From sequence record NC_054931.1: a stretch of 64,000 bases of DNA, one strand, 5' to 3'. Shown here in pieces: positions 2,210 to 32,312 of the stretch. The stretch comes from Escherichia phage T2. The translations under genes were made by a program, and so were the position numbers. The notes beneath the pieces are model-generated. The model worked only from the letters and a program-made list of their open reading frames with translations. It searched no databases and had not been told where the DNA came from. Numbering within the stretch: position 1 is the stretch's first letter; each line of letters opens with the position of its first letter.

Positions 2210-3225
2210 TGTGTTGCCTCTACATATAGCTGATTTGCATATTGAATAAGTGCTTCACGGTCAGAATCAGTGATGTCTGGAATTGCATTAATGTATTCTT
2301 CCATCAATGTCTGAAGCGATTGAACTTCAACTTCTTCACTGTCATCTGACTCGACAGAGTTATCAATCTTTGACACAACTCGTAATGAATGCACAACTTT
2401 CTCTAGTTCAGATTCGAACTTCGTCAGATTTTTGTCTACTTCAGTTACTATAACACGTACTGATAGATTTGTAAAATCTTTATAGTCAATTTTTCCTTTA
2501 AATGGATAATGAATTCTACGATGCCAGGTAGTATTGTTTGGAATAAATTCCATTCGTTCTGTTTCTGTATCAAACATCCAGAACCCACGAGGGTCATTCT
2601 CGTCACCTGCAGTTAGTGTCCATGGTGTCCCAATATATCTGACGTTTGCAGCCTCAGAAATAGTATGGAAGTGACCAGACCACACTTCTTTATAAGTCTT
2701 AAGGAAATCAGGTTCAAGACCATGAGATTTCATTCCTTTATAAAAATAAAATCCATTCAGTTCCCAGTGACCGACGCAAAAAGAAGCAGATGAAGTTTTG
2801 ATGTGTTCAAGAATTTCACCAGTATTTTCTTCGCACATCCAAGGAATCAAATCAATCAAACATCCGTCAAAATCTACTGTAGTAGGCTTATCATATACTT
2901 TAACATTAGGATATTTAGCCAAAAGCTCAGTAGAGGCATTTGGATGCATTACATTTTTATAGTGGAGATCGTGATTTCCTACAATAGTATGTAATGTAAT
3001 TCCAGCATCATCAAGCGTTTGAACTATTTCACGGGCGAACTCCATAGTTTTGTGTGTGATTGCTTTTCGCACATCAAAAATATCACCGTATTGAATCCAT
3101 GTAGTAATTCCATTTTTCTTAGAATATTCTATTGCTTGTTTAATTCCATCAATTTGAATACCGCGAATCCACTCATCATCAGCTTTAACGCCTAAATGCC
3201 AATCACCTAAATTTAAAATTTTCAT
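2206..3225 (-). CDS. 47: Recombination nuclease subunit gp47 (Mre11/SbcD-like phosphoesterase)
   Basis: 339-aa ORF; metallophosphoesterase motifs (GDWHLG, GDIFD, GNHD, GHFH); length as T4 gp47. Confidence 0.9.
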   Translation of the reverse strand: MKILNLGDWHLGVKADDEWIRGIQIDGIKQAIEYSKKNGITTWIQYGDIFDVRKAITHKTMEFAREIVQTLDDAGITLHTIVGNHDLHYKNVMHPNASTELLAKYPNVKVYDKPTTVDFDGCLIDLIPWMCEENTGEILEHIKTSSASFCVGHWELNGFYFYKGMKSHGLEPDFLKTYKEVWSGHFHTISEAANVRYIGTPWTLTAGDENDPRGFWMFDTETERMEFIPNNTTWHRRIHYPFKGKIDYKDFTNLSVRVIVTEVDKNLTKFESELEKVVHSLRVVSKIDNSVESDDSEEVEVQSLQTLMEEYINAIPDITDSDREALIQYANQLYVEATQ

Positions 3226-3385
3226 ATATCAAGAACCGTCATTGAAATGCAAAATAAAATTATTGAAATAAATCCATCTGGAGTACTAAAGAACCCAATC
3301 CAACATGCTCTAGTGAATAGATAAAATGCAAGAAAAAGTATCACATATCCAAGAAATATCATTATATCAAACTCCGTATAAAGCT

Positions 3386-3405
3386 AAAGGGCCGAAGCCC
3401 TTTAT
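3386..3405 (-). terminator. Stem-loop (GGGCUUCGGCCC on minus-strand RNA) immediately downstream of agt
   Basis: Perfect inverted repeat aaagggccgaagcccttt overlapping the agt stop. Confidence 0.5.
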
Positions 3406-4604
3406 TTTGTAATAATGTCAAACTGTTCTTTAAAGCAGAAGCTTGAATCTTGATGCTGATACAAAAATTCATATGCTTTTTCACGTTCGCGGTCATAAAG
3501 AGTTCGGTCAGATGACAGTTCTTTAATACGCTCGAATGTTGATTCCATGTCATTTTCATCAAACCAAATGATACCGCTATCATGCGAGGTCAAAGGAGTA
3601 TTATCAACACGGAATTTTAAATTATCACCCGTTGATTTCCAGAAAACAGGAATTGTTCCACATGCACCAAGCTCGAGATGAGTATATTCTAAAGAACGTT
3701 GTAGATATTTTTTGTCCAACTTACTCAACTGATAACCAAATCCGGATTTACTCATGCGTTCAAGCATTTCGCTATTTACATAACGGTCAAGAATTTGCGT
3801 TGGTAAATTAGGAGCAATTTTAATTTGGTCTACTTGATGAAGACGATAATACTCGTATGGAATTCCTTTTTCTTTAATAGGAATGAACGCTGGAGAACGT
3901 TCCAGACCTTCCATAATAGTACTTAGTCCTGCAGGTTTAAGATGTTTTTCGTGAAAATCAAACATCTGATAAAAACCTTTCCATGTAGTCGTACGACCAA
4001 TCCAACGGTTGATATTCATGTTAATTTCAGAAACATCTTTCCAGTAGGTTGACCGAACCTTCGCAATATCCATAGGAGGCTGAAAGTTATATACTGTCGG
4101 CGCTTCTTCAATATCATCAAACAGAGAAACAGTTTCTGGATACCATTCTTTCATCAGAACTTTATTAAAATCACCATTATCAGAATGGCTAAAAATAACA
4201 TCAGCTCGACGAACAGTTTCTTCTAATCCCAAATTTCGACGCAAAGAAAGAGAAGAATGGTCATGTTGATAAACTACAACACGAACCGAAGGTTTAATGT
4301 TATCAATAATTTTTTTATAGTTATTAATAGTGTCTTCTTCAACTGAAGTAGCAGGAACTGAATTGATAATTAGAATATCACAATCATTTACCAGCTTAAG
4401 TGTTTTATCGTATTCTTTTGCCAATAAAACCGGAATTGAAAATGATTTATAATCATGCGCACAGTTACGAGTAAATGATTTATCTTTAGCATAAACCAAA
4501 GTTACTTCATGACCATTTTTAATAAACCAATCACGTTGCTCAAGAGAAAATTTAGTTACACCGCAACCTTCAAGACCTCGAGCCATAAAAATACATACTT
4601 TCAT
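3402..4604 (-). CDS. agt: DNA alpha-glucosyltransferase
   Basis: 400-aa ORF starting MKVCIFMARGLEGCGVTKFSLEQRDWFIKNGHEVTLVYAKDK; length and sequence character of T4 alpha-gt. Confidence 0.85.
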   Translation of the reverse strand: MKVCIFMARGLEGCGVTKFSLEQRDWFIKNGHEVTLVYAKDKSFTRNCAHDYKSFSIPVLLAKEYDKTLKLVNDCDILIINSVPATSVEEDTINNYKKIIDNIKPSVRVVVYQHDHSSLSLRRNLGLEETVRRADVIFSHSDNGDFNKVLMKEWYPETVSLFDDIEEAPTVYNFQPPMDIAKVRSTYWKDVSEINMNINRWIGRTTTWKGFYQMFDFHEKHLKPAGLSTIMEGLERSPAFIPIKEKGIPYEYYRLHQVDQIKIAPNLPTQILDRYVNSEMLERMSKSGFGYQLSKLDKKYLQRSLEYTHLELGACGTIPVFWKSTGDNLKFRVDNTPLTSHDSGIIWFDENDMESTFERIKELSSDRTLYDREREKAYEFLYQHQDSSFCFKEQFDIITK

Positions 4605-4847
4605 TTAATATCCTCATTGTTTTGGTTTATTTTACCAAAAATTTATAAAGCAATATAGGAGCCGAAGCTCCTATCCGCATAATACGCCATACAAAGGCTC
4701 ATTAGAGCTTCTAAATTTTATGCGCTTATATGTTATAGTTCCTTCTGCTTTAGCTTTATCATGAGACTCTTTAAAGCGTCTCATCATTTCCTCTTTAGAG
4801 GAACGAATTTTATTATAATCTATTTCAGAAGTCTGGATGTTCATCTT

Positions 4848-5054
4848 TCATAACTGCCACCATTTTTTAACTTGATAAGAATCAACCCACACTTTCATAT
4901 TAGGGTCTGCTCTTACAATAGGAGGATTAACTTCTTTAATTGAACTATCACGGTATTCTTTTTCAGAAATTTTCACACAAAGATGACCATTCAAAGATTC
5001 AGTAAATCCTGCATTAATTTTAAGACGCTTGAATTTTACGCGTGTAAGCATCAA
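4848..5054 (-). CDS. Hypothetical protein
   Basis: 68-aa minus-strand ORF in early region. Confidence 0.35.
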   Translation of the reverse strand: MMLTRVKFKRLKINAGFTESLNGHLCVKISEKEYRDSSIKEVNPPIVRADPNMKVWVDSYQVKKWWQL

Positions 5055-28311: not shown

Positions 28312-28632
28312 TTATTCTTTAAATCTAATCAATTTATTCATAGACTTTGAAACTTCTGCACGAACCTCATGTAGATTTTTGAGCTGTTCAAGACGCTGCG
28401 TATAGTAAGCAATTTCATCTTCTTCGAGACAGTCCTGCGAATCTTCTTTAAGATACCGTGCATAGTCCTGGAAAGCGTTACGGACTACTTCCTGGAAGTC
28501 ATCAAGACTTTGAATTTTCTTAGGAGCAACAGATACACGACGAGGTGCAGTATAATACTCATAACCAAACCCTGCGCTTAATTGATCCATTAGTATTTTT
28601 CCTCTGGTTGGAACACTGCACGACAAGCCCAC
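28312..28632 (-). CDS. Hypothetical protein
   Basis: 106-aa ORF. Confidence 0.45.
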
Positions 28633-28850
28633 ATACTGGCTTCTTTGAGTTTCGTTTTAGCAATAGTTAACTGATCGAGGCTTTCAGCATAATTCTTCGC
28701 GAATTCACAGTCTTCACAATTATCTAGTGCTTCCCAGAATTCATCATATAAAGCATCAAAGATAAGTCCTAAACGAACTTCAGCGTCTTTGATAGCATTC
28801 ACTTTACCGATTTTCTCTTCAGTATGTGGTTTATCCCTTAATATCTTCAA
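28590..28850 (-). CDS. Hypothetical protein
   Basis: 86-aa ORF. Confidence 0.45.
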
Positions 28851-29068
28851 TCATATTTGACTTCCTCACCAGTACATAAATCATATTCAACTAAACGAAT
28901 AGGTTCATGAATGCCATATCCCTGAACAGAAACTTCTGTCGTAGGATAAATTCCATCAATATCACCCATATTCCAGGCTTCATTAAATTGCTGTTCGCCT
29001 GAATTACTAAACCACTCGGCGAAAGCATTTATCACATCTTTAGAACCTTCAATAATTATCTTTGCCAT
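28847..29068 (-). CDS. Hypothetical protein
   Basis: 73-aa ORF; start overlaps the stop of the GrcA-like gene. Confidence 0.45.
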   Translation of the reverse strand: MAKIIIEGSKDVINAFAEWFSNSGEQQFNEAWNMGDIDGIYPTTEVSVQGYGIHEPIRLVEYDLCTGEEVKYD

Positions 29069-29437: not shown

Positions 29438-29818
29438 TCAATTAGAAAATAAATTTATCCAAGATTGTTCTTTAATTAAAAATGGCTCAGAATCATATGC
29501 CATTAAACTGTGGGTAATTAATCCTTTAAAAGGTCCATCAATAAATTCCATGGTAAAATATGGAATTTTATTCATTAGCCGTGCATTAGGAGCAGTACAC
29601 AAAACTCTGCATCCTTTGAATACGCCTTTTTGTAATTTGTATTGCTTAGGATAAAATTCGCTTAAAATGTTATTTTTTGCCAAAATTTCAAAATGATTCA
29701 CCAATTTATTTTTAATAGTTTTTGGCGAAAAATAAAGATATTCGAAAAGCTGAGTGTCTGTCATCATTGCATTCCGATTACGAAAAACTGTGGACGAGTA
29801 ATACCACCAATACAACAT
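29438..29818 (-). CDS. Hypothetical protein (start probably at internal MMTDTQ)
   Basis: 126-aa ORF; 5' end overlaps the frameshifted ATPase gene. Confidence 0.45.
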
Positions 29819-30300
29819 TTAATATTACAGCAGCAGTGTACAGTGTCAATATGGACACTATAAATCTTATCCATATCAGGAGATTTGACAGGCTCATCAA
29901 TTATATACAAAATTCGCGAAAGCGATAAACCTCTGAACTTGCTTCCTTTATTACCAATAACTGCGCACAGAATCAGTAAATAAACGAAAACGTATATCAT
30001 CATTAGAATAACGCGAAAATTCCTTTTTGATGTTATTTGCAGAAATTTTAGCGTAAGCTGAAGTATTAGAAAGAACAATAACTGTTCCGCCATCATACAA
30101 CCAATTAGCAGCAAAGTTAGTCACAGCAATTGATTTACCAGATTGACGTCCACCATCTAGTCGAAGTGTGCAATACTGTTTAAGTAAGTCTTCAAATGGC
30201 GGGATATTCGTTTTTACAAATTTCTTCTACTCTAGCATCAGAATGGTGTGTAAAAGCATTCATCAGGGATAGATAAGGACCAGTTAAAAATGTTCTCATT
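29764..30300 (-). pseudogene. P-loop NTPase gene interrupted by two frameshifts
   Basis: ATG at 30298-30300 then stop after 35 codons; second frame carries Walker A LDGGRQSGKS; third frame (ORF 29764..30114) carries Walker B ILYIIDEP; the first shift is at a CCC run. Confidence 0.5.
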
Positions 30301-30439
30301 TCTTCTCTCTAAATTTGGGCCATTCCATGGCGCATGAATTGTCCATTTCTGTATTTACCCATTACCGCGCTTGGGCTCGACATTATTACAGGTTGGCGGG
30401 AATCCCTCACAGAATCATGAGGTCCAGGTTGTTCCCATG

Positions 30440-30913
30440 TTATTTGAACGATTTAACGTACTGAATAGAACCTTTACTATTCACAAAGGCAATTTTACCA
30501 TTTTTGTTATACATGGTAGCAGTACGTTGATAGCCATAAGTTTGTTTACCAGATTGATAACCAACTAATGCGAAATTATCTTCACCCATTTTATTCTGTT
30601 TAGCGCGAATGCGTTCATGACCATGTGCCATAAGAACCTTAGCATCACCAGTTGCAATGGATCGACGAGTTTTTTCATCTTCAACTGTATTAACAAAGTC
30701 GTCAAATGAATCAAATTTAGCATGAGATTTATTATACAGTTTTCCATCTACTGCATAATTATATCCCTGTACATCCATCTCAACTTCTGTACCATCATCC
30801 AATACAGCAGTGATTTTCTGACCTTTTTTAAATTTCAAAAGATCAGTAAAAGATTCAGCAATAATTTGAGAATTAATAGCTGCTTCAGTAATAAATTCTT
30901 GATAGGTTTTCAT
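30440..30913 (-). CDS. Capsid internal-protein-like (IP family) with N-terminal targeting leader
   Basis: 157-aa ORF starting MKTYQEFITEAA (leader with I-x-E prohead-protease-type cleavage motif); located downstream of e. Confidence 0.6.
   Translation of the reverse strand: MKTYQEFITEAAINSQIIAESFTDLLKFKKGQKITAVLDDGTEVEMDVQGYNYAVDGKLYNKSHAKFDSFDDFVNTVEDEKTRRSIATGDAKVLMAHGHERIRAKQNKMGEDNFALVGYQSGKQTYGYQRTATMYNKNGKIAFVNSKGSIQYVKSFK

Positions 30914-31000: not shown

Positions 31001-32312
<1,312 letters not shown>

Follow-up and report, generated by a model that had tools for sequence, protein, structure and literature searches.

The vs.8 locus of phage T2

The stretch of DNA analysed here (the window) comprises 64,000 nucleotides (nt) of Escherichia phage T2, sequence record NC_054931.1. 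Positions 29764-30299 on its minus strand hold the orthologue of phage T4 vs.8 (NP_049732, T4p119; PHROG 1488), a gene which in T2 is split across three frames by two 2-bp deletions and which, unlike its T4 counterpart, cannot encode the protein. In annotated relatives the order on the minus strand is the lysozyme / internal-protein cluster, vs.8, vs.7, vs.6 (GrcA-like), vs.5, vs.4, vs.3 and regB. vs.8 is transcribed leftwards within this early-gene cluster and is the promoter-proximal gene of the block running from vs.8 to vs.3. The 2-kb region around the T2 gene shares 100% identity with six GenBank T2 records (SV76, which is classified as Tequatrovirus T2, is counted among the six T2/SV76 records throughout) and ~97% identity with many other T4-like phages. 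The parts of the locus are listed below, with lengths of proteins in amino acids (aa) and ORF standing for open reading frame.

29764-30299, minus strand: T2 vs.8 pseudogene from start codon to original stop; aligns at full length to RB14, 303Ecol101PP and T4 save for two 2-bp gaps
30204-30299, minus strand: segment 1, codons 1-32 in the original frame, with the conserved N-terminal helix MRTFLTGPYLSLMNAF...; tblastn match to aa 1-32 of T4/RB14 Vs.8 at 100% identity
30204-30207, minus strand: lesion 1, one AT unit lost from (AT)3 with ATAT remaining and the CCC at 30201-30203 unchanged; alignment columns 160-161, codon 33
30192-30203, minus strand: out-of-frame tail Pro-Ala-Ile and premature TGA (30192-30194) after lesion 1; from three-frame translation, closing a 35-aa ORF at 30192-30299
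29960-30202, minus strand: segment 2, codons 34-114 in the second frame, with Walker A GGRQSGKS at 30131-30154; tblastn match to aa 33-115
29959-29960, minus strand: lesion 2, TTTT reduced to TT, after which the second frame stops at TAA (29951-29953); alignment columns 409-410, codon 115-116
29767-29958, minus strand: segment 3, codons 117-179 in the third frame, with Walker B ILYIIDEP at 29890-29913 and the original stop at 29764-29766; tblastn match to aa 114-179
29438-29767, minus strand: vs.7, the next gene, whose ATG overlaps the vs.8 stop (ATGATGA); from the ORF listing and record annotation

Searches with T4 and RB14 Vs.8 (tblastn) recovered the three T2 segments at 92-100% identity over aa 1-32, 33-115 and 114-179, and all of them belong to a single family, PHROG 1488. 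The frame opened by the ATG at 30299 reads MRTF...KNEYPAI* and stops at 30192-30194. In the second frame the only start codon is a GTG at 30124, downstream of Walker A, whilst in the third frame 42 out-of-frame residues precede the authentic C-terminal part. Ribosomes in the original frame would halt 424 nt upstream of the vs.7 start. A sequence-only reading of this DNA had described a P-loop nucleoside triphosphatase (NTPase) gene broken by two frameshifts, with an ATG frame ending after 35 codons, Walker A (LDGGRQSGKS) in the second frame and Walker B in the third. The ORF listing and three-frame translation agree with that description at each point, and the three pieces align end to end with vs.8.

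Alignment to the intact vs.8 of RB14 and 303Ecol101PP revealed exactly two gaps in T2, each of 2 bp, outside which nucleotide identity is ~97-98% (megablast E = 0, 661 phage records matching). The intact gene encodes 179 aa in RB14, 303Ecol101PP and T4. At the first lesion GAATATATCCC has become GAATATCCC, with ATATAT lying immediately 5′ of CCC. The first shift had earlier been placed at the CCC run, but a closer inspection shows CCC to be intact and the real site to be the adjoining (AT)3. At the second lesion GCAGTTTTATTGG has become GCAGTTATTGG. Each lesion is a -2 change and the net change is -4, so that three frames are in use. Restoring AT and TT, the reconstruction that the sequence-only reading had proposed, gave a clean 179-aa ORF with no further stop and no other defect.

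Every residue of the repaired T2 Vs.8 is present in some intact allele. Compared with the intact allele IMGVR_UViG_2938479101_000005, the repaired gene carries only five synonymous changes and E38D, D38 being the residue of T4 Vs.8. Within codons 157-164, three substitutions that seemed peculiar to T2 (Y157C, S161I and one synonymous change) were considered as signs of decay after inactivation, and a G to T change as the origin of a compensatory internal promoter for vs.7 (TTGACA-16-TAATAT, 29849-29822). Both ideas were rejected, as the same three substitutions occur in the intact IMG/VR allele. There is therefore no decay in T2 vs.8 beyond the two deletions, and the inactivation is recent. 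An uninterrupted ORF of ~173-185 aa, which marks a functional member of the Vs.8 family, is not found in T2; the phage thus carries a pseudogene and not a functional member of the family.

We hold with high confidence that T2 vs.8 is a genuine, recently inactivated and lineage-restricted pseudogene, and that T2 makes no functional Vs.8. As the sequences show, the frame is shifted twice, at codon 33 and at codon 115-116, by two independent 2-bp deletions in short repeats. Translation from the authentic ATG stops after 35 codons, and none of the ORFs left has both Walker A and Walker B.

Distribution of the lesions

Both lesions are identical in six records: AP018813 (Japan), MH751506 (an E. coli B stock), PV958097 and PV648363/4 (USA) and SV76 OM339528. 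One of the six T2/SV76 records is labelled as French sewage. Among the 661 phage records matching the locus by megablast, identity of at least 99% was found in these six only. In the ~655 other phage records, nearly all of those sampled span 541 nt, versus 537 in T2. A tblastn search found vs.8 in 1008 records, with query coverage of at least 80% in 1006 of the 1008 and a single piece in all 60 of the 60 matches sampled. The comparison with intact orthologues that had been suggested thus shows ~1000 relatives keeping a single ORF. Of the two explanations put forward from the sequence, the one in which an accessory gene had been caught decaying is right and sequencing error is wrong, both lesions being shared by the six T2/SV76 records. 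The junction sequences of both deletions were absent from IMG/VR and from JGI metagenome contigs, and neither lesion is seen outside the T2 lineage. The pseudogene is already known at the level of annotation: MH751506 lists a 'Vs.8 N-terminal fragment; vs.8-A' and a 'Vs.8 C-terminal fragment; vs.8-B'.

Other apparently broken alleles of vs.8 were also observed. In metagenomes, allele P0018 is frameshifted after IKK and occurs on contigs of up to 38.9 kb, and allele P0013 is without Walker A and the C-terminal part owing to in-frame deletions. ESh34 carries another vs.8 with an N-terminal frameshift; its record is UNVERIFIED and unannotated, and it was left out of the counts. Many records mislabel vs.8 as 'endoribonuclease RegB' or 'large terminase subunit'.

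The intact protein

Intact Vs.8 matches PHROG 1488 ('unknown function') with E = 3.9e-79 over profile positions 2-177 of 177. The position of the family, between the e / internal-protein cluster and vs.7-vs.6-regB, has the same order in T2, T4, RB14, JD18, PEi26 and Pet-CM3-4, and vs.8 lies in conserved synteny in Jiaodavirus, Kanagawavirus and Karamvirus. An obligate pairing of vs.7 with vs.8 was considered and rejected, since in PEi26 and Pet-CM3-4 no vs.7 lies next to vs.8. Searched with the profile, 1.84 billion representatives yielded only 50 proteins of the family, nearly all of 160-185 aa and none of terminase length. The family is therefore small and restricted to T4-like phages. By sequence comparison, intact vs.8 is under purifying selection and functional (dN/dS, the ratio of nonsynonymous to synonymous rates, ~0.10 for Tequatrovirus versus Mosigvirus).

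The conserved residues comprise the N-terminal helix, D49-GGRQSGK56, R113, R124-G125, a Walker B with E137-P138 and a C-terminal FFVIG(M/T)Q. Expressed as motifs, these are an arginine-bearing P-loop GGRQSGK[ST], an RG motif, a Walker B of the form hhhhDE-P and a C-terminal strand ending in G[MT]Q. The Walker motifs of ASCE / RecA-like P-loop NTPases, GGRQSGK[ST] and (I/L)(Y/V)II(D/E)E, are invariant or nearly so in 16-23 homologues. Vs.8 has the central parallel beta-sheet flanked by helices that characterises the RecA-like fold, and the AlphaFold 2 model of the intact protein has a predicted local distance difference test score of 81 and a predicted template modelling score of 0.80. On its motifs and model, intact Vs.8 is a predicted 179-aa stand-alone, single-domain RecA-like (ASCE) P-loop NTPase resembling the terminase ATPase, and it probably binds and hydrolyses ATP.

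An hhalign comparison placed Vs.8 49-154 on gp17 160-274, aligning the P-loop RQxGK[ST], the RG motif and Walker B, with a probability of 16%. Unlike proteins containing the TerL ATPase domain (T4 gp17, PDB 2o0h; Sf6 gp2, 4idh), Vs.8 is only 179 aa long and has neither a nuclease domain nor the lid/subdomain II; it also comes from an early-gene cluster and not from the late packaging operon. It ends at residue 179, just after the strand following Walker B, and so lacks the C-terminal RNase-H-like nuclease domain of TerL. It likewise lacks the two tandem RecA-like domains of superfamily 2 helicases. No terminase ATPase family was matched above threshold. A Pfam scan gave only weak AAA_14 and Terminase_6N matches, both below threshold, and the match to terminase PHROG 2 was weak (E = 1.2e-5). 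PADLOC returned a negligible HerA match only, and sequence and profile searches of the PDB with Vs.8 returned nothing significant.

In BFVD the Vs.8 model matches many uncharacterised stand-alone RecA-like proteins of 145-175 aa from unrelated large phages, including 201phi2-1, EL, phiRSL1, SPO1 (gp34.44) and Vibrio phage JSF10. These structural matches point to a broader class of mini-ATPases.

Others picked out vs.8 when T4 proteins were screened with AlphaFold 3 against the immune sensor EcAvs2 (Nat Commun 2026;17:10151; PMC13601566; preprint 10.64898/2026.04.30.721860), and the vs.8 of T4 or PhiC120 was toxic together with EcAvs2 (PMC13601566). The authors regarded vs.8 as a homologue of the ATPase domain of T4 terminase, left its role in infection open and suggested that non-terminase activators of Avs2 may be anti-defence proteins; their study removed 'partial and truncated proteins', and T2 is unmentioned (Nat Commun 2026;17:10151). 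Ksap1 and Ksap2 are alike in being small, lineage-restricted phage proteins of unknown function whose beta-sheet core resembles that of the terminase ATPase and which activate Avs2 when co-expressed with it (Nat Commun 2024;15:9860; 2026;17:10151). They differ from Vs.8 in their unrelated sequence, in the phage groups that carry them (Dhillonvirus and Stephanstirmvirinae) and in having been shown to be infection triggers for KpAvs2, the toxicity of Vs.8 having been reported on co-expression.

In HIDEN-SEQ, a transposon-sequencing study of T4, vs.8 received insertions at 59/59 TA sites, was scored 'Non-essential' and is absent from the reported conditional hits (bioRxiv 10.1101/2025.11.20.689424). 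The CRISPRi-ART score for vs.8 is 'Not Fit' (PMC11879866). Vs.8 is an accessory protein, dispensable for T4 on laboratory E. coli, and the literature makes it most likely that it acts at the interface between phage and host defence. T2 would tolerate the loss of vs.8 because the gene is dispensable on laboratory hosts, those of T2 among them.

The start of vs.8 and its leader

The T4 gene is annotated as encoding 219 aa (25 kDa), i.e. with 40 extra N-terminal codons (T4 NC_000866:60000-68000, local 4794-4913). This extension is not conserved: within the region both T2 and the IMG/VR allele have a stop, RB14 shows a +1 shift and in T4 9 nt are duplicated, and distant Vs.8 homologues start at MK/MR without it. 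Judged from these sequences, the true start of vs.8 is likely to be the conserved MRTF, with the T4 annotation over-extended. In T2 the region upstream is as follows.

30300-30439, minus strand: conserved non-coding leader between ip4 and vs.8; its reading frame is not conserved across relatives

This leader is GC-richer, and an RNA element within it was considered. The idea was rejected, since its fold was no better than that of shuffled sequences (z = +1.4), there was no match in Rfam and neither a terminator nor a promoter signal rose above chance. A small conserved hairpin was seen at window positions 30404-30421, with the sequence CCUCAUGAUUCUGUGAGG in T2 and CCUCAUGAUUAUAUGAGG in T4. It lies between ip4 (or denV) and vs.8, just past the former, and has no U-tract.

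A series of 2-bp deletions in T2

Fragments are also annotated in MH751506 for nrdC.2, mobD.1 and an RB69ORF104c-like gene. With this in mind, small indels were surveyed in T2, T4 and RB14, each phage being scored for differences from both others over ~84-92 kb of aligned sequence. The isolated events were as follows.

-2 deletions: T2 12, T4 1, RB14 1
-1 changes: T2 5, T4 6, RB14 4
+1 changes: T2 6, T4 8, RB14 2

The -2 class was enriched in T2 relative to all other indels (Fisher p = 0.0015), and the occurrence of 12 of the 14 -2 events on one branch, that of T2, has p = 8e-5. The T4 spectrum is dominated by +/-1 changes. The T2 deletions fall in 49.2, nrdC.2 (two), nrdC.4, nrdC.7, mobD.1, vs.4, vs.8 (two), rnlB (two) and hoc, at the following sites.

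Window: 11908, 13255, 13297, 14764, 17406, 22837, 28834, 29958, 30203
AP018813:95990-145989, local: ~7937, ~8884, ~9611

The frame breaks in 49.2, nrdC.2, nrdC.4, nrdC.7, mobD.1, vs.4 and vs.8 were confirmed by tblastn; the deletions in rnlB and hoc are called from DNA alignment. Each of the deleted dinucleotides inspected belongs to a repeat, partial or complete (XYX, XYXY or XXXX). Three T2 genes were hit twice (vs.8, nrdC.2 and rnlB), vs.8 essentially without accompanying substitutions. Ten of the 12 deletions are common to all T2 records checked. The other two, those of 49.2 and nrdC.4, occur in AP018813, SV76, PV648363/4 and PV958097 but not in MH751506, and being polymorphic they arose after the T2 stocks diverged. 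The window and MH751506 differ at sites 11908, 14764, 16652, 17197 and 31534, which comprise these two 2-bp deletions, two 1-nt homopolymer changes and one single nucleotide polymorphism. Stocks of T2 kept in laboratories thus differ from one another, by more indels than substitutions.

Both vs.8 lesions belong to this T2-specific set of two-base deletions, at least 12 in number, which affects dispensable genes. Tentatively, they may be part of a T2-specific and possibly still active -2 frameshift process, a lineage-specific mechanism dismantling the accessory genome, although we regard this as doubtful. Candidate mechanisms for the -2 excess include a difference in replisome or repair and the processing of breaks with a 2-nt stagger; slippage of the ordinary kind in homopolymers would produce -1 changes, unlike the T2 series. 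Two other origins were rejected. Ultraviolet (UV) light acting through pyrimidine dimers in T2, which is without denV, does not fit several of the deleted dinucleotides (AT in ATAT, CA in CACA), as they contain no dipyrimidine. As for homing-endonuclease cut sites, the lesion in mobD.1 is the only one close to a known T4 gene for a homing endonuclease. Nothing on a 2-bp-deletion signature in T2 was found in the literature.

The closest parallels to T2 vs.8 are T2 hoc, rnlB, nrdC.2 and mobD.1 (fragments by the MH751506 annotation) and T4 vs.5, all of which are dispensable genes with small frameshifts and intact flanking genes. T4 vs.5 has lost a single base pair, however, whereas most T2 lesions are 2-bp deletions. 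Phage contingency loci, at which genes of T2, T4 and T6 are frameshifted at simple repeats, resemble the vs.8 sites as well (bioRxiv 10.1101/2025.10.21.683753), but these are homopolymers of at least 6 nt with reversible +/-1 changes; the vs.8 sites are (AT)3 and T4 tracts with -2 changes fixed in six T2 records. vs.8 was rejected as a contingency locus on that definition, and it is unmentioned in the preprint.

Alternative explanations

The alternative that survives best is adaptive loss, in which vs.8 was inactivated in T2 as a liability, for example as the trigger of an Avs2-type terminase sensor in a past host. Such a history would accord with the toxicity of Vs.8 with EcAvs2 on co-expression, with the loss of the whole vs.3-vs.8 block from T6, with the further broken alleles P0018 and P0013 in metagenomes and with a gene hit twice without other decay. 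It is nevertheless unlikely. Avs2 is still triggered by the terminase itself, T2 remains subject to defence by the KpAvs2 operon, and vs.8 is intact in ~1000 relatives. Moreover, at least seven other T2 accessory genes bear the same kind of lesion, which indicates mutational input and relaxed selection and not selection specific to vs.8.

It is very improbable that one or more fragments of the split gene are still made and functional, be it the 35-aa N-terminal peptide with its invariant helix or a C-terminal piece. The first 16 residues are almost invariant in the family and are still translated from the authentic start, and gene callers predict ORFs of 109-110 aa and 57 aa in the other frames. 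Yet no fragment contains both Walker motifs: the frame-2 ORF from the GTG at 30124 begins after Walker A, and the frame-3 ORF carries its 42 out-of-frame residues ahead of the authentic C-terminal part. The model has the N-terminal helix packed against a core domain that the 35-aa peptide lacks, and the second hit in the gene is consistent with neutrality once the first had occurred.

Programmed recoding, by which two +1 ribosomal frameshifts would yield a near full-length Vs.8 lacking two residues, can be set aside with still greater assurance. Each -2 deletion is formally correctable by a +1 shift, the first site has CCC-G, and tRNA-Pro is known to slip +1 on CCC-N sites. Against this, the next codon at the first site is the common GCC, with no adjacent slow or stop codon and the stop two codons on, and no +1 re-pairing is possible at the second site (AGT TAT TGG TAA). 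Neither lesion has the conserved slippery codon beside a stop or hungry codon that marks a programmed +1 site of the prfB type. Two successive low-efficiency events would also multiply, the nearby leader has no RNA structure, and the arrangement is confined to T2, ~1000 relatives keeping a plain ORF without a conserved recoding signal. Programmed +1 frameshifting was therefore rejected on codon context and lack of conservation.

An artefact of sequencing or assembly, with vs.8 intact in the real phage, is equally remote, even though the second lesion lies within a T run and five of the six records could in principle share the influence of a reference (AP018813 and SV76 are of equal length). 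Homopolymer sequencing errors had been raised as an alternative from the sequence, but both lesions are -2, unlike the +/-1 typical of such errors, and one lies in an AT dinucleotide repeat. MH751506 derives from a different stock and a separate assembly, differing from the window at five sites in 50 kb, yet has both lesions and annotates the products as fragments; PV648363/4 and PV958097 differ in length from the other T2 records. Independent T2 records thus do not restore a single frame, as resequencing of an intact gene would. Because six records agree, including that of a different stock, and the lesions are not of the homopolymer type, sequencing error is effectively excluded.

Several points weigh against the reading of T2 vs.8 as a genuine pseudogene of a dispensable, terminase-like ATPase. 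The evidence consists of assembled records, and the six are taken to be independent because they vary in submitter, country and length. SV76, equal in length to AP018813, may not be a separate phage but a re-isolate of T2. The CRISPRi-ART guides sat at the over-extended annotated start of T4 vs.8, ~100 nt upstream of the conserved ATG, which makes that negative result weak. The ATPase activity of Vs.8 is read from motifs and fold, and the link to the terminase is statistically weak, Pfam Terminase_6N scoring 12.7 bits against a cut-off of 22 beside the hhalign probability given above.

vs.4, vs.3 and the surrounding block

Two further genes of the block bear on the consequences of the lesions.

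28831-28854, minus strand: start of vs.4 with a third T2-specific 2-bp deletion, GGGTTATAA to GGGATAA, giving MIEDIKG*; from four-way alignment and translations
28312-28590, minus strand: vs.3, the T4 TadIV-1 homologue, intact and the last gene of the vs.8 to vs.3 block; 91/92 identical to T4

All six T2 records have the vs.4 deletion and no other record shares it, and only aa 9-88 of the protein were recovered by tblastn. Annotators call an 86-aa ORF from a TTG for T2 vs.4, the stop of which overlaps the vs.3 start (TAATG).

T4 vs.3 encodes TadIV-1, a sponge against type IV Thoeris (Nat Commun 2026;17:5047; PMC13243611). The authors of that study expressed Vs.3-Vs.8 from 'the promoter of vs.8', and found T2 to be sensitive to type IV Thoeris despite a functional TadIV-1, ascribing this to apparently 'insufficient expression' (PMC13243611). 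With vs.8 and vs.4 dead in T2, the mRNA upstream of vs.3 would contain untranslated stretches of 424 nt (vs.8) and 240 nt (vs.4), the latter adjoining vs.3. Polarity from the two dead genes may be the cause of the apparent under-expression of TadIV-1 in T2, but this is unproven. The untranslated vs.8/vs.4 mRNA shows no Rho-utilisation signature in the form of a C-rich, G-poor stretch (C/G mostly at or below 1), and the idea is therefore without support from composition. The GAGG Shine-Dalgarno sequence that vs.3 has of its own in T2 also weighs against it.

T6 is without the entire vs.3-vs.8 / denV / ipII / ipIII block, regB directly abutting e (T6 MH550421:58000-68000, local 2495-3512). Among T2, T4 and T6, only T4 has an intact vs.8.

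Other features of the region were observed in passing. T4 vs.5 has a 1-bp deletion, GCTTTCGCCGAG to GCTTTCGCGAG, relative to T2, RB14 and 303Ecol101PP (NC_000866:60000-68000, local 3382-3558); the annotated 58-aa T4 product consists of 18 authentic residues and an out-of-frame tail, and T2 keeps a 73-aa form (window 28847-29068). At window 30440-30913, T2 has ip4 (DUF7412, 157 aa) in place of T4 denV-ipII-ipIII. T2 is classically more UV-sensitive than T4, which the lack of denV fits. T2 is also without e.2, nudE being followed directly by e.3. At window 31001-31987, nudE and lysozyme e read as one 328-aa ORF across a 37-nt spacer without an in-frame stop, which is probably trivial; records annotate two genes there, at 31533-31973 and 31001-31495. 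AP018813 mislabels vs.5, vs.6 and vs.7 as tail tube, tail sheath and baseplate proteins, and ip4 as 'valyl tRNA synthetase modifier'.

Significance

T2 vs.8 is an ordinary, recent and already-annotated pseudogene of a dispensable accessory gene, and in itself it is of little weight, being the loss of such a gene in one laboratory phage. Its value lies in what it is connected to. T4 (intact), T2 (a clean double-frameshift null) and T6 (without the block) form a natural allelic series for the question of Vs.8 and EcAvs2, and T2 is a ready-made vs.8-null for asking whether Vs.8 triggers Avs2 during infection. Standing at the head of a block that ends in vs.3/TadIV-1, the gene also bears on the unexplained sensitivity of T2 to type IV Thoeris. 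T2, a founding model organism of molecular genetics, also bears a mutational signature that had gone unreported, its excess of exact 2-bp deletions. If true, the -2 process in T2 would imply a lineage-specific mutational mechanism that erodes accessory genes.

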